A DNA stretch of 64,000 nucleotides from Candidatus Aminicenantales bacterium. GTDB lineage: Bacteria; Acidobacteriota; Aminicenantia; Aminicenantales; UBA4085. How positions within the stretch are numbered: the stretch's first letter is position 1; the number at the start of each line of letters is the position of its first letter. This document shows positions 27,703 to 58,094 of the stretch, piece by piece. The stretch is from contig JBEKTZ010000006.1 in NCBI GenBank assembly GCA_049515535.1, forward strand, positions 62,001-126,000. Reading direction: 5' to 3'. The notes under the pieces are model-generated. The model saw nothing but the letters and a program-made list of their open reading frames with translations. It did no database searches and was not told the DNA's origin. A program made the position numbers and the translations under genes.

Positions 27703-27704
27703 AG

Positions 27705-40544: not shown

Positions 40545-41843
40545 ATGATCATTCCCAAAAAAATCCTGAACTTTGTTCTGGTTTTTCTCATTCTTGCCGC
40601 CGGCGTCTACTTCATCGGCGTCAAAAAAGTGTTTCAACCTAAGCATAATCAACAGGCTGGAGAATCGGCCGCGCTATCTGGAGCTTCTGGCAAAGGCGCG
40701 CCCACGGCCGCGGCGAATCCCGCTTCCGGGGCGCCCGATCAGAAAGTCGAAGCGACGCCTCTTCCGGTCAAGGTCGCCGTCGCCCATAAAGCCGATCTTG
40801 TCATGACTCTCAAATCGCCGGGCGAAGCTTTTACGGAGCGGAAGATTACCCTCAAGGCCGAGGTTTCCGGAGAAGTAAAAAACCTTTACGCGGCCGAAGG
40901 AAAACACTTCAGGGAGGACGATCTGATTATGGCCCTTGACGATCTGAAATACCGTCTCAACCTCGAGAAGCTCGAAGCGTCGCGATTGAAAAGTTTGTCC
41001 GAAATGTTCCTCGAAAGGCAATATGCCGCTTCCGAGCAGGCGGCCGTCCCGGCGGGCGCGCTGGAAAAGCTCAAAACGGCCCTGGCCGCTTTCGAAAAGG
41101 CCGCATCCGTTTTTGAGAAAGGCGAAATCTCCCGCGATCAATACGAAAAAGTCCGCAATGATTATGAAATGGCCTTGATCGAGTCGGGTCGGAGAAAAGA
41201 CGACATCATGGCCACCTCCAAGAACCTGACCCAGACCGATATCGACATCAAACTCGCCCGGATGGATCTCGATAAAACCCTTGTCCGCGCGCCGTTCGGC
41301 GGAGTCGTGACCGACATCAAAATTTCGCCGCGGGAACACATTGACGCCGGCCGGGAGCTGTTCACCCTGGTGGACCTCGGCCGGATCAAGGTCAAGGCTA
41401 AGGTCCTCGAAAGCGAGATCGGCAAGATGAAGACAGGCCGGGAGGTGGACCTCCGGTTCAGCGCTTATCCGGGCAAGGTCTTCAAAGGGACGGTCGAGGC
41501 GATCAGCCCCATCGTCAATTCCGACGATAAGACATGCTCGGTTTTCATCACTATGAGCAATCCGAACGAAGAGATAAAGCCCGGCATGCATGCTGAAGTC
41601 GAGATCGCCGCGGAAATCTACAACAATAGGCTTCTCGTGCCGCAGGATGCCGTGCTCGTTCGCGGCGGCCGCAAGCTCGTTTTTGTCATCGAGGGCGACC
41701 TGGCCAAGTGGCGTTATGTCGGGATCGGCCTCGAGAACGAACGCTACGCGGAGATCCTGGACGGCGTCAAGGAAGGCGAGCAGGTCATCATCGAAGGCCA
41801 TTTCACGTTGGCCCACGACGCCCGGGTTTCGGTCGTCAAATAA
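40545..41843 (+). CDS. RND efflux periplasmic adaptor (membrane fusion protein)
   Basis: N-terminal TM, lipoyl halves (EVSG.V, VRAPFGGVV), helical hairpin, KPGM, VP..AV. Confidence 0.92.
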   Translation: MIIPKKILNFVLVFLILAAGVYFIGVKKVFQPKHNQQAGESAALSGASGKGAPTAAANPASGAPDQKVEATPLPVKVAVAHKADLVMTLKSPGEAFTERKITLKAEVSGEVKNLYAAEGKHFREDDLIMALDDLKYRLNLEKLEASRLKSLSEMFLERQYAASEQAAVPAGALEKLKTALAAFEKAASVFEKGEISRDQYEKVRNDYEMALIESGRRKDDIMATSKNLTQTDIDIKLARMDLDKTLVRAPFGGVVTDIKISPREHIDAGRELFTLVDLGRIKVKAKVLESEIGKMKTGREVDLRFSAYPGKVFKGTVEAISPIVNSDDKTCSVFITMSNPNEEIKPGMHAEVEIAAEIYNNRLLVPQDAVLVRGGRKLVFVIEGDLAKWRYVGIGLENERYAEILDGVKEGEQVIIEGHFTLAHDARVSVVK

Positions 41844-41871
41844 CCCGTCCCAGTCCATGTCGAAGGGGGAT

Positions 41872-43449
41872 ATGATGTTCAAAAGACAAAAATCCATAAG
41901 CGCGTTCCTTCTGGTTTCGTTTATTGCCTGGTCGCTCGTCCTCGCCCAGGAACGCGGCTCCGGCAAGCCGTCCCAGGCGATGACCCTTCGGGAATGCATC
42001 GCCGCCGCTCTGGCCAATAATCTGGACCTCTCGATTGCGGCGTATGATCCGGCCATGAGCGAAGAGTCGATCTCGGCCACGATGGAACAATATCTTCCTC
42101 AGTTCAGTCTCAGTTATAACAAATACGACCAGACCCAGCCGGGAAGCTGGGGAGTCGAAGGGCAGAGCATCCGGACCAAGAACGATAATTATTCGCTCAC
42201 CCTAAGCGAAAAAATCGTCACGGGCACAATCGCCTCGCTTTCCTTTTCGAACGGCATGACCGATACATCGCGGGCATATTCCCTTGTGAATCCCGCCTAC
42301 AATAGCGAATTCAGGTTCAATTTGACGCAGCCGCTGCTCAAAGGATTCGGGCCCAAGGTCAACCGGATCGCCACGCTCCAGGCCGAAAACCTGAGAGACA
42401 TTTCGGTTTCGACCCTTAAATCCACGTTGCTTCAGATGATATTCGATATCGAGAACGCTTACTGGAACCTGTATTCGGCGATCGAAAACATGAAGGTTCA
42501 GGAAGGCTCACTCGAGGAAAGCCGGACGCTCCTCAAAAAAAACCGGGAGGCTGTCCGAATCGGAACGAAGTCGGCGTTCGATATCCTGGGTTCGGAGGCC
42601 GAGGTCGCCCAGTATGAAGACGCCCTCGTCTCGGCGCGGCTCACGGTCGAACAAGGCGAGGCCTTGCTGAAGAAGCTCCTGAATCTGCCCGCGGATTCGC
42701 CGGTATCGGGCCGGACGCTGATTCCCGCGGATACGCCCATGATCGAAAAGAAAGATCTCGCTTACGACGAGGCGTTACGCATCGCCCTGGATCAGCGCCC
42801 GGAAATGACCCAGTCCGCGAAAGAGATAGAAAATTACGGATATAGTATCAGCTCCTATCGGAACGAGCTTCTTCCGCGGCTCGACTTGACGTTTTCGGCC
42901 TGGAGTCCCGGCCAATCCGGCGTTCTGTACGTCTATGATAACAACAATTCCATCACCGGTACCCTCATCAATAAAATCCAAGGCAGCCGGACGGACGCCC
43001 TTAAGCAGGCCTTTAAAATGACTTATAAAAATTGGTCGCTTCGGCTGGATTTCAATCTTCCCCTGGCCAATATTTTCACACGATCGAGCCTGGCCAAGGC
43101 CAAAATGGAGCGCGACCAGGCGCTGCTGAAATTGGAGCGGGAAAAGCAAAGCATCGCCTATGAAATCGCCGACGCGATCAAGACGCTGGAAAACGCCGCC
43201 CGGAGAATCGAATCGTCGAGGGTTTCGCGCGAGCTTCAGGAGAAACGCGTTGCGGCCGAAACGCAGAGATACCAGCTCGGCCTCGTCGGAAGCGAATGGC
43301 TGCTCAGCTATCAGCGGCAATTGACGGATGCCCGGACGAGCGAGATCCGGGCGTTGATCGATTATAAGCTCGCCGTGGCCAAGCTCGAGAAGGCCATGGG
43401 CACGACGCTTCAAACGATGGGCCTCAAGTTCCGGAACTTCGCGTTTTAA
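41872..43449 (+). CDS. TolC family outer membrane protein
   Basis: TL.ECI..AL.NN, LTQPLLKGFG, AL..RPE, LP.LD, LEKAMG. Confidence 0.9.
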   Translation: MMFKRQKSISAFLLVSFIAWSLVLAQERGSGKPSQAMTLRECIAAALANNLDLSIAAYDPAMSEESISATMEQYLPQFSLSYNKYDQTQPGSWGVEGQSIRTKNDNYSLTLSEKIVTGTIASLSFSNGMTDTSRAYSLVNPAYNSEFRFNLTQPLLKGFGPKVNRIATLQAENLRDISVSTLKSTLLQMIFDIENAYWNLYSAIENMKVQEGSLEESRTLLKKNREAVRIGTKSAFDILGSEAEVAQYEDALVSARLTVEQGEALLKKLLNLPADSPVSGRTLIPADTPMIEKKDLAYDEALRIALDQRPEMTQSAKEIENYGYSISSYRNELLPRLDLTFSAWSPGQSGVLYVYDNNNSITGTLINKIQGSRTDALKQAFKMTYKNWSLRLDFNLPLANIFTRSSLAKAKMERDQALLKLEREKQSIAYEIADAIKTLENAARRIESSRVSRELQEKRVAAETQRYQLGLVGSEWLLSYQRQLTDARTSEIRALIDYKLAVAKLEKAMGTTLQTMGLKFRNFAF

Positions 43450-43465
43450 ATAATAAGGGGGAAAG

Positions 43466-44566
43466 ATGATTAAAAAAATGATGGCGATCGGATCAGCGAT
43501 GTTCCTGTTATCCCTTCTTGCCCTTGCCCAGCAAATCATCGAAAACTCGGGCAAGCCGCTCTCAAAAAACGCCGGGCGAGTGATCGGGCTCAAAGAAGTC
43601 CTGAAAATAACCGATGAGAGCGGAGCGTTTTATTTTAAATATCCGAGAATTTCCGCGATCGGGCCTGACGGATCGATATTCGTCCAGGATAATGAGCAGA
43701 TCCTGCATTTCGACAAAGACGGAAAATTCGTCCGCAATTATTTCAAAAAAGGCCAGGGACCGGGGGAAATGACTAATGCCTTCGCTTTAATTCCGAATGC
43801 GCAAGGGCTTTGTATCGAAGCGTACGCTCCCGGAAAGCTCGTTTGGTTTGACGGGCAGGGGATGCTTGTCAAGGAGCGCCCGGTTCGCCCTGCGGGACGC
43901 TCGCTAATAATCCTGCAAGCGATCTTCAGCGATATGTATATTTTTTCGAGTTCTGAATTCCCCGCCGTCACGGGTGAGCCTCAGGTCCTCGATAATCCGT
44001 GCACGATTTTCTGCATGAAGGACGGCACGGAGGAACTGAAAAAGCTCCAGTCATTTCCCGTGAAGGCATGGGTCGTTACGTCCGGCGGTGGCGGGGGCAT
44101 GTCTTCTATGGCCCCGTTTTTCGCGGTTCCGTTGAAATCGGGCTTTTTGGTCATCGTCCATACATCGGAATATCTTATAAAAATCCTCGATGTCGCAGCC
44201 AATGAGGTCATTCGCGTATTCAATAGAAAATACGATCGCGTCGAAACTCCGCCGGCTAAACCCCAAGAAAAAGCCGGCACGGTGATGGTCAACAGTATGA
44301 CGCCTCCCCGGCAAAAATATTTGAACGATATCTCAAGGATTTTTGTCAAAAGTGACGCGATTTGGGCGGTGACTTCGACCAGAGATCCGAAAAAAGGCGT
44401 CATGATCGATGTTTTCAATGCCGCGGGCGCTTATACGGACAGCTTTTATTTGAATGTTCCTGCGGGAGTCCAGTTTTTCATTTTCGGCGATTTTTGCTAT
44501 ACGGCCGAGAAGAATGCGGACGAGACATATGCGATCAAGAAATACAAAATCGAATGGAAGGATTGA
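43466..44566 (+). CDS. Secreted 6-bladed beta-propeller (NHL-like) protein 1
   Basis: Signal peptide; DGSIFV, FDKDGKF, KGQGPGE, IDVF. Confidence 0.8.
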   Translation: MIKKMMAIGSAMFLLSLLALAQQIIENSGKPLSKNAGRVIGLKEVLKITDESGAFYFKYPRISAIGPDGSIFVQDNEQILHFDKDGKFVRNYFKKGQGPGEMTNAFALIPNAQGLCIEAYAPGKLVWFDGQGMLVKERPVRPAGRSLIILQAIFSDMYIFSSSEFPAVTGEPQVLDNPCTIFCMKDGTEELKKLQSFPVKAWVVTSGGGGGMSSMAPFFAVPLKSGFLVIVHTSEYLIKILDVAANEVIRVFNRKYDRVETPPAKPQEKAGTVMVNSMTPPRQKYLNDISRIFVKSDAIWAVTSTRDPKKGVMIDVFNAAGAYTDSFYLNVPAGVQFFIFGDFCYTAEKNADETYAIKKYKIEWKD

Positions 44567-44592
44567 AGATGCGCAATTCACGCGGAGAAGAG

Positions 44593-44676
44593 ATGACTAA
44601 AAAAGCGATCGCGATCAGCTCAGCTTTATTCCAGGCATCGATTTTTACCACTCCTCAGACGCTTTGGAGAGGATGA
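44593..44676 (+). pseudogene. Signal-peptide-only remnant of a propeller paralog
   Basis: MTKKAIAISSALF resembles MIKKMMAIGSAMF at 43466; GGAG RBS. Confidence 0.4.
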
Positions 44677-44695
44677 AATATACAAGGAGATCATC

Positions 44696-45841
44696 ATGAT
44701 AAAGAGAATTTCCGCGTGTGCAATCGTCGGGTGTTTTTTCATAGCCATAGGGTTGGCCGTGAGCGTTCTCCCATCTCAAACCTCCCCATGGAAGGGCAAA
44801 ATCGAAACCGTTGACGGAGTCAAAGTCATTCGAAACCCGAATGAGCCTCTTTACGGCAACCTGAAGCTCGATCTCGCGGCAGATCTCAAGATCGGCCGGG
44901 CGGACGACGAAAATTATCTTCTTGACCGCGTCCGGGACATCGAAGTGGACAAAGAGGGGAACATTTACGTCGTCGATTTACGGAATTTCCGTGTCCAGAA
45001 ATTCGATAAAAACGGGAAATATCTCCTGACCTTTGGCCGGAAAGGCCAGGGCCCCGGCGAGTTCGATTTGCCTATAAAGGTCCGGCTTGATGAAAGCACC
45101 GGGAATATCGCCGTCCAGGACCAGGTTTACACCATCGAATATTTCGCCTCGGACGGCAAGCCGCTCAAGTCGGTCCGGCTGGCCAACGCTTTTTTTGATT
45201 TTCGCATATCTCCGACTGGAACGGTCTTTGCGATCATCGGAACCGAATCCAACCTGAAAGTCATGCGCAGTCTCGGCAAGATCAACGGCCAAGGTCAAGT
45301 GGAAAAGATTTTCGCGGAATTTCCCTATAATCTTTATATCCAGAAAATGGGCGAAAGTACGATGTCCATCAGCACCGGTCATGAGCTTTCCCTCCTTTTC
45401 AACAGGCTCGGCGAAGAGTCGCTGATTTACGGATATTCGAGGAATTACGAACTTACGGTCGCGGATTTCGACGGAAACACGCGCTTCCGAATCGCCAAAG
45501 ACGAGCCTCTTCCCAGGTTTACCGACAAGGAAAAAAGTGAATTTAGAAAAATGCCGCTCCCCGAGGCAAAACCCTATTTTTATGCGTTGTTCGTCGATGA
45601 CCTAGGCCGGATCTATGTTCAGAGAAATCAGGCGGACTTCCACGTCAAAGACGATATCCAGAAAGAACTCGATGTCTTCAGCAAAGACGGATATTTCTTG
45701 TATCGGACGAAGCTCCCGAAGGATATGTACGTCATCCGCAGCGGATACGTTTATTGCTGCGAAGTCGGCGATGAGGAAATCATCAAGCGGTACAAGATCA
45801 AGAATTGGGATACGATGAAAGCGTCGGCCGAAGGGAGCTAA
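44696..45841 (+). CDS. Secreted 6-bladed beta-propeller protein 2
   Basis: VDKEGNIYV, FDKNGKY, GRKGQGPGEF, DDLGRIYV, DVFSKDG. Confidence 0.85.
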   Translation: MIKRISACAIVGCFFIAIGLAVSVLPSQTSPWKGKIETVDGVKVIRNPNEPLYGNLKLDLAADLKIGRADDENYLLDRVRDIEVDKEGNIYVVDLRNFRVQKFDKNGKYLLTFGRKGQGPGEFDLPIKVRLDESTGNIAVQDQVYTIEYFASDGKPLKSVRLANAFFDFRISPTGTVFAIIGTESNLKVMRSLGKINGQGQVEKIFAEFPYNLYIQKMGESTMSISTGHELSLLFNRLGEESLIYGYSRNYELTVADFDGNTRFRIAKDEPLPRFTDKEKSEFRKMPLPEAKPYFYALFVDDLGRIYVQRNQADFHVKDDIQKELDVFSKDGYFLYRTKLPKDMYVIRSGYVYCCEVGDEEIIKRYKIKNWDTMKASAEGS

Positions 45842-45855
45842 TTCAGCGAAAAAAA

Positions 45856-46098
45856 ATGAACGAGCGCATTAGAAGGGCATTTCCAATCATCGTTTTATCA
45901 TTCGTCCTATTGCCATTGATCCTTTTTTCCCAACAAATCATCGAGAATCCTGATAAGCCGCTCGCGAGGAATGCCGGCCGGATTCTCAAACTTCAGGAAG
46001 TCTGGAGAATCACGGACGAGGGAGGACGGTTCTATTTCAAAGCGCCAAGCAATCTTGAGGTTGCCAAGCGCTATTCCGCCGAGTGGCTCAAGAAATGA
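45856..46098 (+). pseudogene. N-terminal fragment of a propeller paralog
   Basis: QQIIENPDKPLARNAGRILKLQEVWRITDEGGRFYFK closely matches the N-terminus of 43466, then stops. Confidence 0.75.
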
Positions 46099-46119
46099 CG
46101 GATAAATCGTAGGGAAAGG

Positions 46120-47301
46120 ATGAAGCTCATGACCCGACCGACAGGTAATATCGCGGCCATTTTTGGGGCCATAGTTTTAACGGTTTGTCTTTATCCGGCG
46201 GCAAACGCCGACCGATCACTCGCGGAGATCTATAAGACCGGCAAGGTCCGTTTCGTCCCGGAAATGACCATTACGGACGCGGCCATGGGCGGGAAGGAAT
46301 TTTTCGGAATGGTCATGGATATCGCTTTGGACGATCAAGGCTTTATCTATGTCTGCGATTACAAAACCAATAACATCAAGAAATTCGATTCGTCCGGGAA
46401 ATTCCTCAGGACGATCGGCAAGGCGGGGCAAGGTCCCGGTGATTTCGACGGACCGAGCGAGCTCGAATTCTCGCATGGACGTTTGGTTGTCCGGGAGGGA
46501 ATGAATCGTCGCGTCTCCATTCTCCATTCCGACGGATCATTCATTAAATCCATTCCCATAGATTTTCAGAAAGGATCCTGGATGGCCATGCGAGCCCTGC
46601 CGGACGGCCGATTCATGGTCCAAAAAGAAAAAGTCGATTACAACGACTTGAACGCTCCCCAGGAACTGTATCTCGATCTCTATTCGGCCGAGTTGGATTA
46701 CATCAAGACGATTTATCACAGACAGGTCCGGAGCAATAAATATATCCGAGAACCGTACTATTCAAATGTCCCCATTCCGTTTGCGCCCATGGTCTATTGG
46801 GATGTCACGGCGGACGGAAAAATCGCCGTCGGATACTCGGATCATCTCGAGATCGAGATCTACGATCCGGACAAGGGAAAGATTTCCGGCTTCACCCATT
46901 CCTCCAAGGCGGTCGAGGTGACGTCTCAAGATCAAGAGCAATTCTTCGCGAACATGAGCAGCTCCGTTCGAACGGGTTCGAACGTGGTCATGCGGCGCGG
47001 GGCGCCCGAGTGGATCGTGAAAAACACCGAATTTCCAAAATATTTTTCCGCTTTTCGCGACGTGAAAGTCGATGGACAAGGAAACATTTGGGTCGTCCCG
47101 TGGACGTCCGCTTCTCAAAAAGCCGCGCCGGATTTTGACGCATTCACTCCGGACGGCAAATTCCTGGGCCGTGTCCAAATTGACGATGAAAAATTCATGC
47201 CTTATCGACCGTTTTGGCTGCCGAACGGATTTTGGTCCGCGAAAACCAGCGCGGACGGTGAATATCAGGTCGTGAAATATAAAATCACTGGTCTGAATTA
47301 A
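46120..47301 (+). CDS. Secreted 6-bladed beta-propeller protein 3
   Basis: DDQGFIYV, FDSSGKF, GKAGQGPGDF, DGQGNIWV. Confidence 0.85.
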   Translation: MKLMTRPTGNIAAIFGAIVLTVCLYPAANADRSLAEIYKTGKVRFVPEMTITDAAMGGKEFFGMVMDIALDDQGFIYVCDYKTNNIKKFDSSGKFLRTIGKAGQGPGDFDGPSELEFSHGRLVVREGMNRRVSILHSDGSFIKSIPIDFQKGSWMAMRALPDGRFMVQKEKVDYNDLNAPQELYLDLYSAELDYIKTIYHRQVRSNKYIREPYYSNVPIPFAPMVYWDVTADGKIAVGYSDHLEIEIYDPDKGKISGFTHSSKAVEVTSQDQEQFFANMSSSVRTGSNVVMRRGAPEWIVKNTEFPKYFSAFRDVKVDGQGNIWVVPWTSASQKAAPDFDAFTPDGKFLGRVQIDDEKFMPYRPFWLPNGFWSAKTSADGEYQVVKYKITGLN

Positions 47302-47316
47302 CCTGAAGAGGCGGCC

Positions 47317-50300
47317 ATGAAAATCGCGAAATACGCTATCGATCGGCCGGTGACGACCATGATGTTCTACCTGGCCATCGTCCTGCTCGGCCTGATTTCC
47401 CTGCGTCAGTTGAGCGTCGACCTCATGCCGAACATCAGCTATCCGCGCCTGTCGGTCATGACCGAATATTCAGGCGTCGCCCCTGAGGAAGTCGAGACGC
47501 TGGTCACGGCCCCGCTGGAAGCGGCGGTCGGGCGCATCCCCGGCCTACGGCGCGTCGAGTCGGTGTCCAAGGAGGGCGTCTCCTTCCTGACCCTCGAGTT
47601 TGCCTGGGGCTCGAACATGGACTTTACCATGCTCCATACGCGCGAGGCGCTGGACAGCACGCGCGAGAGCCTGCCCGAAGGCGCCCGCAGTCCGACGATC
47701 ATCCCCATGGACCCGCAGAGCAAGCCGATCCTCGTTCTAGCCTTGTCCGGCGAGGGGGGACTGCTCGATCTCAAGGAATTCGGCGAGGAACTGGTCAAGC
47801 CGCGCCTCGAACAGATTGACGGCATCGCCTCGGCCGAGATTACCGGAGGGATCGAGCGCGAGATCCAGGTCGAGATCGATCCGAACCGGCTGGCCCTCTA
47901 TGGGCTGACGATCGACGAGGTGGCCGCGCGCATTGACGCCTTCAACCGCAACCTCCAGGGCGGGACGATCCGCAAGGGCACGTTCAAGTACGCCATCCGT
48001 GTGGTCGGCGAATTCGAGACGGTCAAGGAGATCGGCGAGATCGGCCTGAAGACGACCAAAGAGCGGGGTGTGGTCCGCCTTCTGGATATCGCCCGCATCC
48101 AGGATTCGATCAAGGAGAGGCAGGGGATGACCCGGCTCGACCGGAAAGAGAGCATCGGCATCCTGGTGCACAAGGAAGCCGGGGCCAACACCGTCCAGAC
48201 GACGAAGCTGGCCAAGTCCGTGCTCGAGCAGATCCGCAAGGAGAATCCCAAGATCAACGTTTTCATCGTCTCCGAGCAGGCCGCCTATATCGAGTCGGTC
48301 GTCGCCGCCGTCAACGACGAAATCGTCCAGGGCGCGATCTTGGTTTTTCTCGTTGTCCTGCTTTTTCTCCAGGAATTCAAGACCCCGATCATTATCAACA
48401 TCGTCATCCCCATCTCGATCATCGCCACGTTCAACCTCATGTACTTCTGCCACATCACCCTCAACATCATGTCGCTGGGCGGACTGGCCTTGGGGGTGGG
48501 CATGCTCGACGACTGCGCCGACGTCGTTTCGGAAAACATCTTTCGCCACCGGAGCATGGGCAAGAAGACGGCCCAGGCGGCCTATGACGGCGTGCGCGAG
48601 GTCGGCGGCGCGGTCGCGGCTACGGCCTTGACTACGGTCGTCGTCTTCCTGCCGATCATCTACGTCCGCGGTATCGCCGGCCCTCTATTCAAGGACGCGG
48701 CCTTGACCGTCAGCTTCTCGCTGCTGGCGTCGATGATGCTGGCCCTGACCCTCCTTCCCATGCTGCAGGGACGATGGGTCAAAAAGCGGGCCGAGTTGGG
48801 ATTGCCGCAAAAAATGGAACCGGTCGATTTCGGTCTGCCGAAAAGACCGGCGCGGCGTTTTTCGTTTCTCCTTTGGCCCTGGAAGGGATTGCGCTGGATC
48901 CTCTATAAGATCCCCCGGGGCGTGCTCGCGGTTTTGCGGGCCGTCCTGGGAACCTTGTGGGACGGACTGAAGACCATCGCCGAAGTCCTGGCTTGGCCCT
49001 TCCGCCACCTTTTAAAGCTGGTTTTCCGGGGCTTCAACGCCGTCTATCATCCGTTCGTCAAGCGCTATCGTGGCTGGCTTGTCTGGAGCCTGAACCATAA
49101 GCGCATCATCGGGGCGGTGACGATCGTATTCTTCGCCGTGACGTTCGTCATCGGCTACCGGCTGCCTCGTGAGCACATGCCCAAGATCAAGGCCATCTCC
49201 TTCGAGGTGAGCCTGAAAACGCCCGTCGATTACTCGCTCGACCAAACCGCGGGCGTCGTCCAGACGCTCGAGCAGCACCTCCAGACGATTCGGACGGTGA
49301 AGAAGACCTTTTCCCAGATCGGGCTGGTCAGCGGCATGGAAAGCTTGAACCCGGACGTTGCCCTCAACGCGGCCAAGATCTACGTTGAGGTCGCTTCGCC
49401 CGCTGATTGGGAACCGGCTCTCATCAGCCTGCGGCGGAAGCTGGCCGATTTTCCCGACGTCACGTATTCCATCGCCGGAGAGCAATCCGTTCTGGCCGAT
49501 TTCCTGACGTTTTCCTCGAGCGAGATCAGCCTCAAAGTCCAGGGATTGGAGCTGGACCGCCTGAACGCCATTGCCCGCGATTTGGTCGGCCGTTTGAGGA
49601 CGGTCCGCGGGCTCGTCGATTTAAGCGCCGCGAGCGGCGAGGGCAAGCCGGAATTCCGGATCAAAATCCGCAAGGACGCCCTCGACAAATACGTCGGGCT
49701 CACGCCCGGAGAGATCAGCGGCTGGCTGGTCAACGCCGTACGGGGGAAGAAAGCCACGCAGTTCAACGAGATGGAGAAGAAATACGACGTCTGGGTCCGG
49801 TTGGGCGAGTCGTCGCGGGCCACCCTCGATTCGATCCTCAACGGCGAGCTCCCGCATCAAGGGACGCTTATCCCGCTGCGAGAGCTGGTCACGGTGGAAC
49901 CCGCGCGGGGGCCGCAGGAAATCCGCCGCGAGAACCAGCAACGGGAGATTGTGGTCTCGGCCAACCTCCAGGGCGCCAAACTCAGCCAGGTCGTTCCGGC
50001 CATTAACGCGGCCATCAAGCAAATCAAGCTCCCCGAGGGCTATCAAATTGTCTTTGGCGGCGAACAGGAGGAAATGAACAAATCTTTCCAAAGCCTGATG
50101 CTGGCGCTTGGGTTAGCCGTCTTACTGACGTACATGATCATGGCCGCCCAGTTCGAGTCTCTTCTGCATCCGTTCCTGGTCATGCTGACGCTCCCGATGG
50201 GCGCGGCCGGCGCCTTCGTTTCGCTGTGGGCCGGCGGGCAGACGCTCAACGTCATGGCCATCATTGGCATGGTCGTCCTGGTCGGGCTGGTGGTGGACGA

Positions 50301-50631
50301 TGCCATCGTCGAGATCGACTTCATCAATCAACTGCGGCGCGGCGGAAAGGGCCTGCGGGATTCCGTCGTCGAAGGGTGCATGACGCGGCTGCGAGCCATC
50401 TTGATGGCCTCGCTGGACACAGTCGCCGGGCTCATCCCCATGGCCCTGGGCCTTGAGCGCGGATCAGAGCTCTTGAAGCCCCTGGGCATTGTCGTGGCCG
50501 GCGGGTTGTTGTTCTCGACCCTGCTGACGTTGATTTTGATTCCTGTCGTCTATGAGGCGGTCGAAGCGCGGAAAGAGCGGCGGGGCATCGGCGTCCATGC
50601 GGGCATCGTCGCCGAAACCGCGGCGGAGTAG
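47317..50631 (+). CDS. RND efflux permease subunit A (AcrB/AcrD/AcrF family)
   Basis: AI.RPV, LN.MSL.GL, QFES..HP, 12 TMs, two large periplasmic loops. Confidence 0.93.
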   Translation: MKIAKYAIDRPVTTMMFYLAIVLLGLISLRQLSVDLMPNISYPRLSVMTEYSGVAPEEVETLVTAPLEAAVGRIPGLRRVESVSKEGVSFLTLEFAWGSNMDFTMLHTREALDSTRESLPEGARSPTIIPMDPQSKPILVLALSGEGGLLDLKEFGEELVKPRLEQIDGIASAEITGGIEREIQVEIDPNRLALYGLTIDEVAARIDAFNRNLQGGTIRKGTFKYAIRVVGEFETVKEIGEIGLKTTKERGVVRLLDIARIQDSIKERQGMTRLDRKESIGILVHKEAGANTVQTTKLAKSVLEQIRKENPKINVFIVSEQAAYIESVVAAVNDEIVQGAILVFLVVLLFLQEFKTPIIINIVIPISIIATFNLMYFCHITLNIMSLGGLALGVGMLDDCADVVSENIFRHRSMGKKTAQAAYDGVREVGGAVAATALTTVVVFLPIIYVRGIAGPLFKDAALTVSFSLLASMMLALTLLPMLQGRWVKKRAELGLPQKMEPVDFGLPKRPARRFSFLLWPWKGLRWILYKIPRGVLAVLRAVLGTLWDGLKTIAEVLAWPFRHLLKLVFRGFNAVYHPFVKRYRGWLVWSLNHKRIIGAVTIVFFAVTFVIGYRLPREHMPKIKAISFEVSLKTPVDYSLDQTAGVVQTLEQHLQTIRTVKKTFSQIGLVSGMESLNPDVALNAAKIYVEVASPADWEPALISLRRKLADFPDVTYSIAGEQSVLADFLTFSSSEISLKVQGLELDRLNAIARDLVGRLRTVRGLVDLSAASGEGKPEFRIKIRKDALDKYVGLTPGEISGWLVNAVRGKKATQFNEMEKKYDVWVRLGESSRATLDSILNGELPHQGTLIPLRELVTVEPARGPQEIRRENQQREIVVSANLQGAKLSQVVPAINAAIKQIKLPEGYQIVFGGEQEEMNKSFQSLMLALGLAVLLTYMIMAAQFESLLHPFLVMLTLPMGAAGAFVSLWAGGQTLNVMAIIGMVVLVGLVVDDAIVEIDFINQLRRGGKGLRDSVVEGCMTRLRAILMASLDTVAGLIPMALGLERGSELLKPLGIVVAGGLLFSTLLTLILIPVVYEAVEARKERRGIGVHAGIVAETAAE

Positions 50632-50639
50632 GAGCGGCC

Positions 50640-53600
50640 ATGAAATTCTTCGTCGACCGGCCGGTGGCGACGGCCATGATCTTTCTCTCGCTCCTCGTCC
50701 TGGGCGTTTACTCGTTTCTCAATACCCCGCTCGAACTGGAGCCCAATGAGAATTATCCGCAAGTCGATATCCAGACTTCCTGGCCGGGCGTTCCGCCCGA
50801 GATCATCCAGACCAAGATCACGGCCCCGCTCGAAGAAGTCGCGGCAACGGTCAAGGGCGTCCAAAAGATGACTTCAACTTCGGCCATCGGCTTGTCGCAG
50901 ATCACGCTCGAGTTCAGCTCCAAAACGAACATGGAGTTCGCCACCCTCGCCCTACGCGAGAACATCGACCAGGTGCGACGGCGCAGCGATTTCCCTGCCG
51001 GAGTAAGGCCTATCGTCCAAGCCTACGTTCCGGAAGATTTCCGCGTCCGGCCGTTCCTGAGCTACACGGTCTCGGGAAACTATTCCCTGCAAAAACTTCG
51101 GGAGCTGGTCAAGGACAAGATCGAATTCGGCTTGGGATCGGTTTCCGGCGTAGGCCACGTCGGCGTCTCCGGAGGGTCCAATCCCGAAGTCCGGGTCACG
51201 CTGGACAAGGCCGCTCTTAAGGCTCTTAACATCGAACCCTACCAGGTCATGATGGCCATCCGCGATCGGCTGAGTATCTATCCTTCGGGGCGCGTCGTCC
51301 AGGGGACGCAGGAATATCTTTTCAAGTTCACGGATGCGGCCCGGGACATGCGCGAGATCGGAGAAACGGTCGTCGGTGCGGCCGGAGCTCATCCTGTCCG
51401 GGTCCGCGACGTAGCCCAAGTCGGATTGGCTTACGGCGACGTTTACTCCATCCGCCGCATCAACGGCCGGCCGACGATCGGCGTGACCGTCATCAAAGAG
51501 AAGGGCACCAATACCCTGCAGGTATCCCGTGAGGTCAAGCGCAAGGTCGAGGAGATCAAGCGCAGCCTGCCCGGCGATCTCGATTTCAAGATCGTCGACG
51601 ACGAGAGCCAGGAGATCCGTCAGAACCTCAACGATCTTTATCGCCTGGCCGCGATCATCACGGCCATCGTTTTTCTCATGATTTTCGTAGTCCTGCGGCG
51701 CTCCAAGCCGTCCCTGCTCATCCTCTCCTCGATCGCGTTTTCCGTGGTCATCACCTTTCTGCTCATCTATGCGTTCAAGATCTCGCTCAACATGCTGACC
51801 CTCGGCGCCCTGGCCCTCGGGTTCGGCATGTTCGTCGACGACGCGATTGTCGTCTTCGACAACATCCTGCGCCAACGGGAGAAGGGGCTTTCCCCGCGCG
51901 AGGCTGCGGTCCAAGGTCCGAAGGAGGTGTTCACCGCCGTCCTGGCGTCGACGTTGACCACGGTCTCGGTCTTCTGTTGTTTCCCGTTTTTCCAGGGGCG
52001 GCTCAAGATCTTTTATCTGCCGCTGGCCATCGTCATGACCTCAGCCCTCCTGGCTTCGCTGGTCGTTTCGTTCACGGTCATTCCAGCGCTCTCGCCCCGG
52101 CTCCTGCGTGAACGGAAGATCAAGGCCCCCAAGCGAATGCGAGGACGGTTTGACCGGGTCCTGCGCTTTTTTCTTCGTCATCCGATCGAGGTCGTTCTCG
52201 TCGTCGCCGCGATTCTCTTCGGGACCTATAAGTGGTTCCGGGCCGAAGTCACGATCGGAGAATGGTTCCGTTGGTATTCCAAGGATTTTCTCTACGTCAG
52301 CGTCGGCATGCCGCCGGGCACCGATATTTCCAGGACCGACACGGCCATCCGGATGTTCGAAACCAAGGTCATGGAGCAACCCTACGCCAAGGACATGAAT
52401 GCCGACATCGCGTCTGAAAACGCTTCCATTCGGATCGGCTTTCCGCCGGACATCGAGCGTTCGTACCGGCCCTATGCCCTCAAGGAAGAATTGATCCAGT
52501 TGGCCACCCAATTCGCCGGCCTGAACATCAACGTCAGCGGGTTCGACCAGCAGTATTACTACTCGAGCATGGGAACGGGGACGTCTTACAGCTCGCAGAT
52601 CAAGTTCTTCGGCTACAATCTCAAGAAACTCAAGGAGATCACGGCCGACCTGGAGGGAACGTTGAAACGCAATCCGCGCATCAAGGAAGTGCGGACGGTG
52701 TCCAGCCGCTACGGCTGGTGGCGCGGGGATACCTTCGAGAACATTCTCAAGATCGACAAGGCCGCCCTGCGCCAGTACGACGTCGATCCCTTGTACCTGT
52801 ATTATTATCTCCAGACGCTCCTGCGCGGACAATTCGGCTCCCCGGCCAGGATGCAGATGGAAGGTAAGGAGATCATTATCTCGGTTAAGTTCCCCGACGC
52901 CGAGACGCTCGACATGCGGGCTTTGCGCGAAACCTTGATCCGGACACGGGGCGGCGAGTATCTGCGCCTGGGGCAGGTCGCCTCTTTCGATGAACGGCCG
53001 ATTGCCGGTTCCATCGACCGCGAGAACCAGCAATTCCAGCAGACGATCATGTGGGAGTTTCGCGGCCCGTCAAAGGCCGAGGAACGCTACCGGAAAAGCG
53101 TTTTTGCCAGCCTCCATCTCCCGGCCGGATTTTCGGCGGTGATGGAGGAAAGCTATCGAATGACCGAGAAGGAAAAAGGCCAGATCACCATGGCCATCGT
53201 CATATCGTTGGCCCTCATCTTCATGATCCTGGCTTCGCTCTACGAATCCCTGGTCCAGCCCTTTCTCATCCTGCTGGCCGTGCCGCTCGAATTGATAGGG
53301 GTCTTCATCGCTTTCATCGTCGCCGGGGCGGCCTTCGACGCCTCGGCTTACATCGGCGTCGTTCTTCTCGGCGGGATCGTGGTCAAGAACGCCATCCTGC
53401 TCGTCGATCACATGAATTTGAAGAGGCGCCAGGGACGGCCCCTGCTCGACGCCGTCGTCGAGGGCACGCGGGACCGGCTTCGGCCGATCATCATGACCAC
53501 AGGGACAACCGTTTTCGGTATCATGCCCATGTTGCTCCTGACCGCCGCAACGGGGAGGCGCCAGATCTGGAACGCGTTGGCTTTATGCACCGCCGGCGGG

Positions 53601-53726
53601 CTGGTCAGCTCAACTCTCTTCATTCTGGCCGTCGTGCCGATTTTCTATTATTACGTGGAGAAATGGCGAGTCCGAAGAACTTATCAAATGCAGAATGCAG
53701 ATCACTCCGAGTCGGTAGAATTGTAA
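50640..53726 (+). CDS. RND efflux permease subunit B (AcrB/AcrD/AcrF family)
   Basis: VDDAIVV, VVKNAILLVD, RLRPIIMTT. Confidence 0.93.
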   Translation: MKFFVDRPVATAMIFLSLLVLGVYSFLNTPLELEPNENYPQVDIQTSWPGVPPEIIQTKITAPLEEVAATVKGVQKMTSTSAIGLSQITLEFSSKTNMEFATLALRENIDQVRRRSDFPAGVRPIVQAYVPEDFRVRPFLSYTVSGNYSLQKLRELVKDKIEFGLGSVSGVGHVGVSGGSNPEVRVTLDKAALKALNIEPYQVMMAIRDRLSIYPSGRVVQGTQEYLFKFTDAARDMREIGETVVGAAGAHPVRVRDVAQVGLAYGDVYSIRRINGRPTIGVTVIKEKGTNTLQVSREVKRKVEEIKRSLPGDLDFKIVDDESQEIRQNLNDLYRLAAIITAIVFLMIFVVLRRSKPSLLILSSIAFSVVITFLLIYAFKISLNMLTLGALALGFGMFVDDAIVVFDNILRQREKGLSPREAAVQGPKEVFTAVLASTLTTVSVFCCFPFFQGRLKIFYLPLAIVMTSALLASLVVSFTVIPALSPRLLRERKIKAPKRMRGRFDRVLRFFLRHPIEVVLVVAAILFGTYKWFRAEVTIGEWFRWYSKDFLYVSVGMPPGTDISRTDTAIRMFETKVMEQPYAKDMNADIASENASIRIGFPPDIERSYRPYALKEELIQLATQFAGLNINVSGFDQQYYYSSMGTGTSYSSQIKFFGYNLKKLKEITADLEGTLKRNPRIKEVRTVSSRYGWWRGDTFENILKIDKAALRQYDVDPLYLYYYLQTLLRGQFGSPARMQMEGKEIIISVKFPDAETLDMRALRETLIRTRGGEYLRLGQVASFDERPIAGSIDRENQQFQQTIMWEFRGPSKAEERYRKSVFASLHLPAGFSAVMEESYRMTEKEKGQITMAIVISLALIFMILASLYESLVQPFLILLAVPLELIGVFIAFIVAGAAFDASAYIGVVLLGGIVVKNAILLVDHMNLKRRQGRPLLDAVVEGTRDRLRPIIMTTGTTVFGIMPMLLLTAATGRRQIWNALALCTAGGLVSSTLFILAVVPIFYYYVEKWRVRRTYQMQNADHSESVEL

Positions 53727-53819
53727 TGGTCCGCGGACGGATATATCTTTTTCTTGTGAGGGACGGTAACGATTCCGAGCTTAACGGGAGGGATCGTCGC
53801 CTTGCGCGAAAATGCAACT

Positions 53820-53835
53820 TGCTTTAGCTAAAGCA
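53820..53835. promoter_or_regulatory. Perfect 16-bp palindrome TGCTTTAGCTAAAGCA, possible operator
   Basis: Self-complementary; ~20 bp upstream of the ATG at 53856. Confidence 0.4.
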
Positions 53836-53855
53836 TGAAATTGCGAGGAGGAAAG

Positions 53856-54983
53856 ATGAAAAAACCAATCGCCCTTTTGGCGTTGACCGGCGCCCTTTGT
53901 TTGACCGCCGCCACCGCCGACCTCCTGACTTCTTATCAAACGGGGGAAATCAAGCTCGTCGCCGATCCCGGTTTCGGTGGCAAGACAGTGTGGGACATGC
54001 TCTTTCAACCCGCCGACGACCGTTCCATCGCCTTCCTCTCCGACGGAAGTTTTTTCCGTGCCGCTTCGAAAGATTCAAGAATCTACAAATTCAACGCCGC
54101 CGGCGAAAAAATCTTCGAGTTCGGCGCGAAGGGCCAGGGACCCGGCGACCTCATGAACCCGAACGGACTGGGCATCCTCGACGATAAAACGCTCGTGGTT
54201 AATGATTCCGGAAACAAGCGCCTCTCCCTATTCGACCTCACCGGAAAATTCGTCAAGAGCGTAAAAACGAACGACTCGACGACGTCGCTCGTTGCCCTCT
54301 GCAATGGAAAGGTCGCGCTCGTCACATGGCCGGTCGGCCAGAGCCCGGCGAACTCTATCTTTTGGCGCAATTGCATCGTCCTCAAGGACCTCGAAACCGG
54401 CGCTGAGACCGAGCTCGCGTCATTCGAGGATTTGCAGCCGCGGTCGGCATTCGTCGCAAAAATCGGCCAGTTCATCGGAGCGGCGCAAATCGTCCGGCTT
54501 GGGCCCGACAAGCTAGTCGTTGGCTATACAAAAAGCCGGGATATCGCGATTTATTCGGCAGAGGGTAAAAAACTGGCCTCTTTCGCCTTGGACCTCGAGC
54601 GGGTGAAGATCACGTTCGACCATCTCCTCTATATCAACGACTCGAGCTCGGATAGCGAGAAAGACAAGGAGATGGGCCGGAAAATCTTCACGATGAACAA
54701 GGCAAAAATCGAGCTTCCTGAATACCATCCCTACTACTCCGACCTCGCCGTCGATTCGGACGGACATATTCTTGTCTATTTGAACGGGTTGGCCAAGATG
54801 ACGCGAGACGTCGCGTTCCAGGCGTATTCGGCCGACGGAAAGCTTCTCGCCTCGGTCAAGGTCAATCCCGGGGATTACGCGCCTGCCGTCATCAGGAGTT
54901 TTTATAAGAATTTCGGCTTCACCACGCTGGCGACCAGGGACGGCACTTCGAGCCTTCTCGCGCGAATTAAAATCGGCATGTGA
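53856..54983 (+). CDS. Secreted 6-bladed beta-propeller protein 4
   Basis: GAGGAGG RBS; signal peptide; YQTGEIKL (cf. YKTGKVRF in 46120), GAKGQGPGDL, VDSDGHILV. Confidence 0.85.
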   Translation: MKKPIALLALTGALCLTAATADLLTSYQTGEIKLVADPGFGGKTVWDMLFQPADDRSIAFLSDGSFFRAASKDSRIYKFNAAGEKIFEFGAKGQGPGDLMNPNGLGILDDKTLVVNDSGNKRLSLFDLTGKFVKSVKTNDSTTSLVALCNGKVALVTWPVGQSPANSIFWRNCIVLKDLETGAETELASFEDLQPRSAFVAKIGQFIGAAQIVRLGPDKLVVGYTKSRDIAIYSAEGKKLASFALDLERVKITFDHLLYINDSSSDSEKDKEMGRKIFTMNKAKIELPEYHPYYSDLAVDSDGHILVYLNGLAKMTRDVAFQAYSADGKLLASVKVNPGDYAPAVIRSFYKNFGFTTLATRDGTSSLLARIKIGM

Positions 54984-55472
54984 CACCCTTTTTCTCCGCT
55001 GACGACGGATTTGTTTTGCTACGGTTTATCCGATGAATACCGGATTTGCGTCGCCGACGCCGAGGGACGGACGGCCTATATCATCGCCAAGGACGAGAAA
55101 CCTCAATCCATTTCGGGCAAGGAGAAGGACCTGACGAAAAAAGACGGCATCTTCGTTTGGATGGGAACGAGCGAAAAGCCTTTGGACGCCGTTATTTTTC
55201 CCGACCATCGCCCGTTTTTCGGGAATATCATGAGCGACGATGCCGGCCGTCTCTACGTCGTGAGATCGTGGTCCATCCTCGACAAGGACGCGCCCCGCCA
55301 CATCGACGTCTTTTCAAAAGACGGAATTTTCCTCTACCGGATGCCGTGGAATTTCATCCCCTCCGCCATTAAGAACGGATTTCTCTATGAAATTCACACG
55401 GACGAGGAGACCGGAGAGATAACGATCGTCCGCCATAAGGTCAAGAATTGGGACGCGATGAAAACCGGCTGA
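54984..55472 (+). pseudogene. C-terminal fragment of a propeller paralog
   Basis: YG.S.EY.I.VAD.EG, DDAGRLYV, DVFSKDG.FLYR, KNWD.MK match the C-half of 44696; no start or signal peptide. Confidence 0.75.
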
Positions 55473-55498
55473 GAGAGCGGTGACCCGAGCCTTTATTC

Positions 55499-56629
55499 TC
55501 ACTTTATATCGTATATAGCTAGTTCTAAATATCCGGAATCTTTCTCTCTGAGACAGTAAAATTTATGGCCTTTAATACGCGCCCATAGCTGGCCTTCCCA
55601 AACATGAATATTTAAGCTTTTTCTTCCAATAAAAACGCCCTCTTGGTTGAAAATGTCCAGCATGAAATCTCCCGGGCTATTGCCTTTTTCGAACGTCGAC
55701 ACCAAAAGCATTCCATCATCTCCGGCGACTAGGGATCGAACGGGAGGATAGCATTCCGGGAAATAGGCAATATGTCTCAAGTTGTTTGGCACATGATTGA
55801 GCATTTCCTTTTTGTCGCTTTCGGAAATGGAAATTTTTCGATATTCTTTTCGTATTTTACGTACCAATTTTCCTTGGAAATCATAAACCCAAATCTCATA
55901 ACCTTTGTCTTCATTCGCCACATAGATATTGTCACGCGATGCACTCCAGCAAAATATCGGCTCGATCGCCCGGAATTTCTCTCGTTCCATCTTAAAGCTA
56001 TAACCATCTAAGACGCTTATTTCCTTTAAATCGGAATTCAGCAGTTTTAGGGAAAATGACTGCTTGGAATTGACGGGATCGAATGAATTATCCAAAACAA
56101 GCAAACCTGTTTTGGGGCCGGATGTGACTTTTACGGCGTTTCTTGCTATTTCATAGCCGCTAATAAAAAGCCCATCTTTGTCATATTTATTCAGGGGATA
56201 TCTTCCTAAATCGGAAATAACGATATGATCTTCGCTGTCCAATAAAATATATCTTGGGTTCCCCAGCTCTCCCGGCCCCTCTCCTTTAAACCCAAATGAT
56301 TTTACATATTTTCCATTTCCATCAAATTTAAAAATATAATTTCCTTTATTGACGAATCCTAAAAAAAATATTTCGCCCCGGGAATTGACCTCGAAACCGA
56401 GGATATGGGCAAGGCCAAGATTAATGATATCGTCTCTCTCCGTATCAATTTTAAATTTTTCTTCCAAGGCTAGAGAGCTTGTCTTGTTGATTTTGTATGG
56501 TTCCAAATGATTGATGACGACTTCTACTCCATTTTCGAAAGCCCTCTCTACTTGGCCTTGCTTCTTGCCGCAACAAATAAAAAGAAAAAAACAGAATATT
56601 AAGGATATCCAATTTCTTATGTTTCTCAT
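55499..56629 (-). CDS. 6-bladed beta-propeller lipoprotein 5 (AT-rich)
   Basis: ICCGKK lipobox; ENGVEVVIN..EP, FDGNGKY, GEGPGEL, DIFN.EG. Confidence 0.82.
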   Translation of the reverse strand: MRNIRNWISLIFCFFLFICCGKKQGQVERAFENGVEVVINHLEPYKINKTSSLALEEKFKIDTERDDIINLGLAHILGFEVNSRGEIFFLGFVNKGNYIFKFDGNGKYVKSFGFKGEGPGELGNPRYILLDSEDHIVISDLGRYPLNKYDKDGLFISGYEIARNAVKVTSGPKTGLLVLDNSFDPVNSKQSFSLKLLNSDLKEISVLDGYSFKMEREKFRAIEPIFCWSASRDNIYVANEDKGYEIWVYDFQGKLVRKIRKEYRKISISESDKKEMLNHVPNNLRHIAYFPECYPPVRSLVAGDDGMLLVSTFEKGNSPGDFMLDIFNQEGVFIGRKSLNIHVWEGQLWARIKGHKFYCLREKDSGYLELAIYDIK

Positions 56630-56832
56630 GATCCCCCCCCTCCTTTGATGCATTTATTTGCCCAATGCCATGCAAAGGATAGTTCATTCTACACGATATA
56701 GAGCCGCGCGTGCAAGATGACGAATCGGGCGGCGGCAGGGATCTCGCTGGACAAAAAAGGTCTATCGGTGTAAAAATAGCTAAAACAGGGAAAAGAGATC
56801 CGGGCGAAGCAGCCGAAAATAAAGAGACGGAC

Positions 56833-58092
56833 ATGGAGAAAAGAGTTATAACGAAGCACCGAGTCGTCGTCACGGGGTTGGGCGTTGTCAGCCCGATCGG
56901 CGCCGGGATCGAGGATTTCTGGGAAGGGTTACTGCGGGGGCGGAACGGAATCGCGAGGATCACGCACTTCGATCCCTCGGAATTCCGATCGCAGATGGCC
57001 GCCGAAGTCAAGAATTTCAATCCTGAGGAATGGATCGAGGAGAAGACTGCGGCGCGCATGGACCGGTTCACCCACTTTGCCTTGGCCTCCGCGGCGATGG
57101 CCATGCGGGACGCTGGATTGAAGGAATCCGGATACGACGGGAATCGGGCCGGCGTCATCATCGGATCCGGAATCGGCGGAGCCCAAAGCATCGAGGATGG
57201 CCATACCCTGCTGCGGGACAAAGGGCCGAAATCTCTCGGGCCTTTCTTCGTGTCCAGAGTTTTGATCAACACGGCCGCCTGCATGGTGTCCATCGCCCAT
57301 GGTCTCAAAGGACCCCTGTCGGCTCCTTCCGTGGCCTGCTCCACGGGCGCCAACGCCATCGGCGACGCCTTTCGCATTCTTCAGCGGGGCGACGCCGACA
57401 TCATGCTGGCCGGGGGGGCCGAAGCCAGCGTGAGTCCTCTGCCTTTTGGCGGGTTTTGCGGTACCCGCTCGATGTCGACCCGCAACGACTGCGTTGAAAA
57501 AGCGAGCCGTCCCTTTGATTTGCATCGCGACGGATTTGTCATGGGGGAAGGGGCCGGTGTCGCCGTCATGGAAAGGCTTGATCATGCCCTCCGGCGTCAG
57601 GCTCCTATCCGCGCCGAGCTCGTCGGCTATGGTAATACCGCGGACGCCTTTCATTTCACGGCGCCGGAACCCGGCGGCGACGGGATGATCAGAGTCATGA
57701 AGGCGGCCCTGGAGGACGCGGACCTGGAACCGGAAAAAATCGGCTACATCAATGCTCACGGGACCTCCACGGTCCTGAACGATAAGATCGAAAGCGCGGC
57801 CATTTTGAAGGTCTTCGGCGATCACGCAAAGCGTCTCAAGGTCAGTTCCATCAAGTCGATGATCGGGCACCTTCTCGCGGCGGCCGGGGCCGTGGAATTC
57901 GCGGCCACCGTGATGAGCGTCGCCACGGGCATGATCCCGCCCACGATCAATTATGAAGAATCCGACCCGGACTGCCCCCTGGACTACGTCACCGGAGGGG
58001 CCGAATCCAAGGACTTCGAGGCGGCGCTGAGCAATTCCTTCGGTTTCGGGGGCGGCAACGTCTGCCTGGTCGTGAAAAGGTACGAGGGCTAA
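56833..58092 (+). CDS. fabF: Beta-ketoacyl-ACP synthase II
   Basis: RVVVTGLG, ACSTG, INAHGTST, KSMIGHLL, NSFGFGG. Confidence 0.95.
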   Translation: MEKRVITKHRVVVTGLGVVSPIGAGIEDFWEGLLRGRNGIARITHFDPSEFRSQMAAEVKNFNPEEWIEEKTAARMDRFTHFALASAAMAMRDAGLKESGYDGNRAGVIIGSGIGGAQSIEDGHTLLRDKGPKSLGPFFVSRVLINTAACMVSIAHGLKGPLSAPSVACSTGANAIGDAFRILQRGDADIMLAGGAEASVSPLPFGGFCGTRSMSTRNDCVEKASRPFDLHRDGFVMGEGAGVAVMERLDHALRRQAPIRAELVGYGNTADAFHFTAPEPGGDGMIRVMKAALEDADLEPEKIGYINAHGTSTVLNDKIESAAILKVFGDHAKRLKVSSIKSMIGHLLAAAGAVEFAATVMSVATGMIPPTINYEESDPDCPLDYVTGGAESKDFEAALSNSFGFGGGNVCLVVKRYEG

Positions 58093-58094
58093 AA

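Follow-up and report, generated by a model that had tools for sequence, protein, structure and literature searches.

A conserved two-permease RND pump clade and a dispersed family of DUF5128 propellers: hints of a putative partnership in Aminicenantia

Among described exporters, MdtABC-TolC of E. coli resembles the locus reported here in having two dissimilar RND permeases (as an MdtB2C heterotrimer) and a single adaptor, and MdtB is the best solved-structure match (9lyq, 273.7 bits). The MdtBC passages of PMC4462101 describe a division of labour between the subunits, which resembles the full relay of our RND-B beside the broken relay of our RND-A, and name no propeller partner. Orthology to MdtB or MdtC was rejected: with the NCBIfam models, RND-A reached 403.6 (cut-off 1584) and 425.6 (cut-off 1774), and RND-B, at 322.8 and 356.6, fell far below the same cut-offs. 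The CusA/CzcA (HME) permease type was rejected as well (TIGR00914, 498 and 312 bits, cut-off 701). CusF is one small metal chaperone, whereas here we describe a 40-kDa propeller family of variable number and mostly unlinked. According to PMC8277102, CusF is a non-essential periplasmic protein that passes substrate to the CusCBA RND system, a periplasmic hand-over like the one that we propose below. SwrC/YerP of Bacillus subtilis, a lipopeptide-exporting RND protein, reportedly needs an interacting accessory protein (bioRxiv 10.64898/2026.08.10.744025); it differs in being a single permease of a monoderm with no propellers. The cargo of the Aat system, CexE, is listed as 12 kDa. Aat is ABC-powered and handles small cargo. 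The abstract of PMC7943197 presents Aat as a composite system, with type I secretion elements, that can place a Sec-exported protein on the cell surface, a likeness taken up below, but its ABC ATPase/permease and acyltransferase are absent among the ORFs of this locus. In B. thetaiotaomicron, a six-bladed propeller gene, BT0664, lies near the RND adaptor gene BT0669 (PMC10434189). BVU_1028 (3s9j) and BF0058 (4raa), solved relatives from DUF5128 (PF17170), share family and fold with the propellers of this study. A literature search of main texts, mostly open-access, found no paper linking RND to DUF5128, none containing the term 'DUF5128' and no function for the family.

The locus occupies positions 40545..56629 of the window, by which we mean the whole 64,000-nucleotide stretch of Candidatus Aminicenantales DNA that was analysed. 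It opens with an RND periplasmic adaptor (MFP, 432 aa; 40545..41843, forward strand; TIGR01730 188 bits against a cut-off of 94.9, with PF16576 and PF13437) and a TolC-family outer-membrane factor (41872..43449, forward; two PF02321 stretches). Still on the forward strand follow propeller 1 (p1, 366 aa; 43466..44566), a 27-codon propeller remnant (44593..44676), propeller 2 (p2, 381 aa; 44696..45841), an 80-aa N-fragment (45856..46098), propeller 3 (p3, 393 aa; 46120..47301), the RND-A permease (1104 aa; 47317..50631), the RND-B permease (1028 aa; 50640..53726), propeller 4 (p4, 375 aa; 53856..54983) and a C-fragment (54984..55472). Propeller 5 (p5, 376 aa; 55499..56629) is on the reverse strand. 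This anatomy, five intact propellers of 366-393 aa and three scraps, agrees in order, strands and sizes with the earlier note. Its gaps under 20 bp were also recovered (16 bp from TolC to p1, 15 bp from p3 to RND-A), as were the motif G[QE]GPG[ED] in all five intact propellers, their divergence otherwise (pairwise local identity 19-40%) and, by eye only, the export signals, Sec-like in p1-p4 and lipobox-like in p5 (Cys19/20). Five of the eight single-domain propellers of the host genome fall inside these 16 kb, a clustering above chance. Gap lengths alone suggest that the genes of the locus are co-transcribed; the gap from RND-B to p4 is 129 bp, and p5, being convergent, is excluded from the same transcript.

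Propellers p2-p5 scored 27.8-35.7 bits with PF17170, above the Pfam cut-off of 22.9. Although p1 fell just below it (21.4 bits), its Atlas value to DUF5128 clusters was 0.98. The model of p2 (pLDDT 92.3) matched best to six-bladed NHL domains, 3s9j and 4raa, including the Brat NHL domain (Z 22.8, rmsd 3.5, 264 aligned) and BVU_1028 (Z 19.1, rmsd 3.9, 293 aligned), so that p2 is, as modelled, a six-bladed propeller of the DUF5128/NHL type. A profile search also found PF01436 matches among the propellers of the locus. The GPG motif is like the turn of an NHL repeat; consequently, G[QE]GPG[ED] need not be a functional signature. Glycines are the sole invariant residues across 56 propellers, as would suit binding scaffolds better than a single enzyme. 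No universal export motif was found among 184 propellers, one N-terminal pattern occurring in 30 of them and another in 27. We also considered a slot-specific subfamily and ruled it out, since subfamilies contain both slot and non-slot members; for the p1 subfamily, 9 of 59 matches (self excluded) lie at a pump.

Both permeases match the AcrB/AcrD/AcrF (HAE1-like) family PF00873 over their full length (797 and 619 bits), and the RND-B model shows ordinary AcrB architecture (TM 0.77). They belong to a deep RND-A/RND-B clade, mostly present as a single copy, whose members come from Aminicenantia and from other lineages as well; a scan of the genome contigs found one locus, and plasmid and viral collections yielded no clade member. 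By motif columns, RND-A of the window lacks the equivalents of AcrB D408, K940 and T978, whereas RND-B has the full AcrB-type relay (D407, D408, K940, R971, T978). Across the clade, RND-B has Asn at the D408 position in 78 of 82 proteins and at the K940 position in 75 of 82, a difference from MdtBC, and some lineages show a coupled return from Asn/Asn to Asp/Lys. Single changes at relay residues kill AcrB, according to PMC4359379. The Asn/Asn relay is not unique to the clade, as D408 and K940 are missing from all 40 control paralogs too. The idea that the Asp/Lys relay marks a change from Na+ to H+ energetics was unsupported: the F-type c subunits of three genomes with Asp/Lys pumps (G000, G147, G127) share Q..ET..Y with that of an Asn/Asn genome (G113), the same pattern in both relay types. 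Q..ET..Y is read here as a Na+ motif. Residues invariant specifically in RND-B lie in TM5 and in the opening part of the second periplasmic loop. A complex prediction of the RND-B periplasmic loops with p2, run without folded controls, scored 0.01, which counts neither for nor against contact.

We compared 79 orthologous loci from 42 genera with 40 single-RND paralog loci. MFP, RND-A and RND-B occur together in 64 of the 79, and TolC in only 7. By HMM, propellers were near the pump at 29 of 79 orthologous loci and at 2 of 40 control loci. Motif matches at pump loci numbered 42 against 4.5 expected, a roughly nine-fold local enrichment, and were found at 25 of 79 loci (4.3 expected) and in 14 of 42 genera (4.0 expected), while the controls gave 0 (1.95 expected). 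Of 64 propeller ORFs at pump loci, 59 are on the pump strand, and 18 of the 29 propeller-bearing loci have a propeller no more than 500 bp from a core gene. Positions vary: before or after MFP, between A and B, or after B. The link recurred in every family sampled within the class (11 of 11) and in three families outside it, where 5 of 19 loci have flanking propellers, one with zero gap after RND-B. We conclude that the association of this RND clade with propellers is non-random, on the strength of the local enrichment, the contrast with controls, the recurrence in other classes and the genome-level co-occurrence given below. However, 50 of the 79 loci have no propeller in the fetched region, which reached about 4 kb downstream and was often cut by contig ends, and 795 of 837 motif matches genome-wide (95%) lie away from the pump locus. 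The earlier note had read the propellers as part of a dedicated system. Its association of clade and propellers stands, even though most orthologs lack adjacent propellers and the family is scattered, two outcomes which the note had named as refuting and which are each seen in part; its locus-dedicated propeller subunits were too strong a claim, since empty loci, dispersed motifs and the absence of a slot-tied subfamily indicate that propellers are not obligatory or locus-dedicated. A single pump serving a dispersed propeller family fits better than a dedicated locus.

The genome-wide association was stronger than that at the locus. In genomes with completeness of 90% or more, at least five propeller motifs occurred in 68 of the 88 that have the pump, compared with 1 of the 21 that lack it (median size of these 21, 3.0 Mb), and the median motif number was 8.5 versus 1, statistics inflated by kinship, as 22 of the 40 pump-negative genomes belong to one genus. 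Within-genus pairs gave 18 versus 1, 17 versus 2 and 34 versus 3 HMM matches. The dependence is one-way: pumps without propellers occur, and motifs number fewer than five in 30 of the 111 genomes that have the pump, but large propeller families without a pump are rare, one exception (G131, 86% complete) having 24 motifs and no pump found. Pump-negative genomes mostly match paralogous RND, yet have almost no propellers.

Several features point to turnover at the locus. The remnant is a decayed signal peptide with the initial propeller residues (blastx match at E=0.001 with the N-terminal end of a slot propeller of locus L173). The N-fragment is a p1-type N-terminus (65% over 63 aa to locus L039) whose tail of about 13 residues resembles the C-terminus of another subfamily (weak match, E=0.065), and is a probable deletion scar. 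The C-fragment, a C-terminal half without its own start codon, lies in frame directly after the p4 stop and matches intact propellers of loci L036, L176, L181 and L183 (47-48% over 160 aa). Intact copies have relatives at other pumps, p1 with 64% identity to the same-slot gene of L173 and p3 with 54% to a propeller that follows RND-B in locus L195. GC3 is 0.40-0.72 in propellers versus 0.78-0.84 in permeases; p5 (GC 0.39, GC3 0.40) is probably a recent arrival. Within the operon span of orthologous loci, 27 of 42 ORFs are propellers and 15 are unrelated, and genes such as HEPN/MNT, thiD and ABC genes also enter the slot. An integron-like cassette array was ruled out: repeat families of the window fall in coding or ribosome-binding sequence, and locus L173 contains one two-copy 57-nt repeat and no recombination sites repeated between cassettes. 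A promoter and terminator scan of the window stayed at shuffle level (7 versus 8.5 and 27 versus 23.2).

Our preferred reading, a tentative one, is that one pump serves a set of envelope capture proteins, the propellers, any of which can stand in for another. The core would be an old, vertically inherited MFP, RND-A and RND-B exporter, the two permeases most likely forming a heteromer, with TolC local in some loci and otherwise presumably borrowed. Propellers, exported by Sec and acting as binding proteins in the periplasm or at the outer membrane, would be its optional, exchangeable clients. Each would capture a ligand of its own, most likely a peptide or another envelope-active molecule, and deliver it to the pump in the way that CusF supplies CusCBA. 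Most copies could reside elsewhere in the genome because any family member can serve, and the operon would be a preferred parking site where copies acquire the pump promoter and are rapidly gained and lost. A somewhat doubtful account dispenses with any physical link: pump and propellers would share a lifestyle or regulon, and the operon would be a tolerant insertion hotspot where an abundant array-forming family decays. That most propellers form arrays remote from any RND gene agrees with this, as do the 50 empty loci, the three scraps among eight propeller units in the window, the unrelated ORFs in the slot and the lower GC3 of propellers. The lack of enrichment at control RND loci, the recurrence at differing positions in so many families and the near absence of propellers from pump-negative genomes, most of which still match a paralogous RND, argue against it.

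It is unlikely, in our judgement, that the propellers are cargo, a family of surface proteins which an assembly of RND-A/B, MFP and TolC carries, after Sec export, to the cell surface or outer membrane. A dedicated export route would predict the one-way dependence, and a single pump per genome coexists with up to 130 propeller matches (G152); the non-canonical relay, the RND-B-specific invariant residues and the Aat precedent are also consistent with cargo. However, the permeases, judged by the RND-B model, retain ordinary AcrB architecture, TolC is seldom local, no export motif is universal, and a folded 40-kDa propeller exceeds the width of the TolC channel. Still less probable is a role in immunity, with propellers protecting against peptide products that the pump or neighbouring cells export. 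The propeller arrays are divergent and fast-turning, and at some distant loci (L099, L096, L087, L086, L088) a C39-peptidase ABC exporter is accompanied by HlyD, radical SAM, MauE or redoxin genes, but these neighbours are uncommon and vary from locus to locus, and the ORFs of the window's locus include no precursor or biosynthetic gene. A broader reading, to which we give a rather low probability, is that the clade is not a drug pump but a single dedicated machine for propellers, acting through surface export or through ligand uptake from propeller adaptors. It would stand behind the DUF5128 expansions in Aminicenantia, in other Acidobacteriota and, probably, in bacteria of the FCB group, and for ligand uptake it would draw on a library of exchangeable adaptors that could reach 100 or more.

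The capture reading, like the others in which pump and propellers work together, hints at an undescribed, putative partnership. For RND energy coupling, the Asn/Asn relay with its coupled return to Asp/Lys in some lineages amounts to a natural experiment. If propellers programme the pump or pass through it, RND specificity would be modular, unlike that of AcrB-type pumps, and a dedicated propeller machine would represent a new class of RND system, defined by protein handling or by modular specificity. DUF5128 copies can exceed a hundred per genome, and one conserved pump clade provides a testable handle on this family.

The earlier note had described the gene order, strands, lengths and short gaps of the locus, and all were present in the window sequence. 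Pfam searches identified an RND adaptor (the MFP), an OEP/TolC protein, two PF00873 permeases and DUF5128 propellers, with the score of propeller p1 just below the cut-off. The predicted structure of p2 is a six-bladed NHL-type propeller (pLDDT 92.3), and the nearest bacterial structures to this model were the Bacteroides proteins BVU_1028 and BF0058. Judging from sequence similarity, the three gene scraps at the locus are evidently propeller-derived. The 27-codon remnant resembles the start of an intact propeller at the pump locus of a close relative (E=0.001), and the C-fragment, amounting to half a gene, follows the p4 stop in frame. The 80-aa fragment has a p1-type N-terminus, and its final residues weakly resemble the C-terminus of another subfamily (E=0.065), the pattern expected from a deletion between tandem propeller copies. 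The locus is followed, at 56710-59162, by genes for ketoacyl synthase and for nitronate-monooxygenase-family proteins, a place where a PLP enzyme and an SPFH pair are commoner in relatives. Elsewhere in the window, 24001-28000 has low GC (0.46-0.48) and a strong GC skew.

RND-A and RND-B of the window are 31% identical in their best stretch, score far under the MdtB, MdtC and CusA cut-offs, and belong to separate clades with similar branching. Most clade members have Asn at the positions of AcrB D408 and K940, as do single-RND paralogs. Asp and Lys occur together there in window RND-B (50640-53726) and three others of 82, while window RND-A is without D408, K940 and T978. This difference resembles how MdtB and MdtC divide their functions, as far as an excerpt of PMC4462101 describes it, and we infer that RND-A and RND-B would form a heteromer. 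The Asp/Lys pair was also seen in RND-B of L001, L032, L041, L173, L182, L184, L202, L212 and L228, and in P0160 of a distant branch, which suggests, from sequence comparison, that a coupled Asn/Asn to Asp/Lys change may have happened repeatedly. F-type ATP synthase c subunits at L271-L274 show a Q..ET..Y pattern and are extended at the N-terminus by a signal-like stretch.

A clade-specific RND-B segment was present in 111 of the 151 genomes of class Aminicenantia, almost always as a single copy. Whole-protein pump matches were found in 19 of 274 other Acidobacteriota. MAGs of KSB1, Delongbacteria and Bacteroidota are among the named members of the wider clade, for which 20 of 150 representatives were looked up. 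We fetched loci from 79 of the 111 pump-positive genomes, picked by score and contig position, taking in ~12.5 kb on the upstream side of RND-B and 4.4 kb on its downstream side; many were cut short. MFP, RND-A and RND-B occurred together in 64 of these loci and TolC was local in 7; L106:6867-16475 has RND-A followed by two RND-B copies.

The check suggested in the earlier note, whether propeller genes are consistently embedded beside RND-A/RND-B orthologs, gave partial support: HMM searches detected them in 29 of 79 pump loci versus 2 of 40 control loci with single-RND paralogs, but in 50 of 79 fetched pump loci detected none. Of 64 propeller ORFs, 59 lay on the pump strand, and in 13 loci (5 genera) propellers lay within the MFP-to-RND-B span. 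A DNA motif, which picks up 44 of the 61 full-length propellers and yields next to no matches in reversed form, gave 42 matches at the 79 loci, where the motif density of each genome would predict 4.5; under the same fetch rule, the controls gave 0 versus 1.95 expected. Beyond the class, propellers directly flank the pump in 5 of 19 loci, these five being spread over three families. In metagenomes such flanking propellers were present in 30 of 80 loci, one being the window contig itself and some duplicates. In L173, whose permeases are 89-93% identical to those of the window, there are 12 propellers in a different set and order, which implies fast propeller turnover. Two propeller gene ends in this 12-gene array carry a 57-nt direct repeat (91%; 15618-15674 and 18521-18577). 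In G147, seven propellers run from RND-B toward the contig end (C55:5125-13308) and ~18 more lie on a second contig (C29:4595-25137); these may be one array.

Most propellers lie elsewhere: 795 of 837 motif matches in the same genomes were away from the pump locus, and propeller arrays often occur with no RND at all. Among 59 non-self matches of p1, just 9 lay at a pump, and propeller clusters mixed members from pump loci and other places. Empty loci, distant motifs and mixed clusters thus show that the propellers are not obligatory subunits. Non-propeller ORFs also occurred within the operon span (15 of 42, a few of them doubtful calls).

Immediately upstream of MFP, L091:6577-7764 and 11 other family-f8 loci, mostly propeller-free, encode a ~396-aa protein that is conserved, looks exported and matches nothing in Pfam; it may be another accessory protein. 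Proteins of ~1090 aa, putative tricorn proteases, lie beside lone propellers or near the pump (L257:11026-14328, L265:2853-6131, L266:7983-11237, L164:12983-16216). In distant families, the pump has beside it either a C39-peptidase ABC exporter together with HlyD or genes for MauE, radical SAM or redoxin proteins (L099:11981-15563; L086, L087, L088, L096), a hint of peptide-related loci.

Co-occurrence was stronger at the genome level. Within the class, the median was 8 motifs in pump-positive versus 1 in pump-negative genomes, and at least 5 motifs were found in 81/111 versus 3/40, a comparison whose p-values are overstated because 22 of the 40 negatives belong to one genus. Restricting the comparison to genomes with a completeness of 90% or higher gave 68/88 versus 1/21. 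Pump-positive members averaged more motifs in the seven mixed genera (in g39, a later recheck found that the sole 'negative' genome carries the pump, split by a contig end), and HMM counts agreed for three genus pairs. Outside the class, at least 5 motifs were found in 11/19 pump-positive versus 13/255 pump-negative genomes, the latter taking in the unpublished G173. Three of 7 rechecked genomes among these 13 exceptions are probably pump-bearing (G238, G292, G386), rechecks limited to exceptions being biased toward the link; an HMM propeller recheck of G198 and G186 gave no match. G131 remains an exception (24 motifs, 86% complete), and G003 and G227 have few propellers despite a pump. In G152 (5.9 Mb), a single pump match was accompanied by at least 130 matches to propellers among the 150 of 228 candidates scored, many in long arrays (e.g. 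C1 2637575-2747705); one propeller on C1 lies directly beyond RND-A.

Two-permease operons and DUF5128 are each known separately, and our literature searches found no account of a link between them; the control-locus comparison and genome-level co-occurrence were computed here. According to table rows in PMC10434189, B. thetaiotaomicron has a propeller gene close to one for an RND adaptor. Export of the propellers as cargo would account for the same one-way dependence on the pump and has a precedent in Aat (PMC7943197, in extract), but it strains the AcrB-like architecture of the permeases and we consider it unlikely. An immunity role, with little backing at the window locus, is very improbable. 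A shared regulon combined with a hotspot tolerant of insertion is a possible, if doubtful, explanation.

We tentatively favor the reading that the propellers are a library of exchangeable binding proteins, useful only when the pump is present. Such a library would fit the one-way dependence, and also the observation that the propellers have neither a dedicated subfamily nor invariant polar residues. Hand-over from propeller to pump might then be modeled functionally on CusF, as portrayed in part of PMC8277102.
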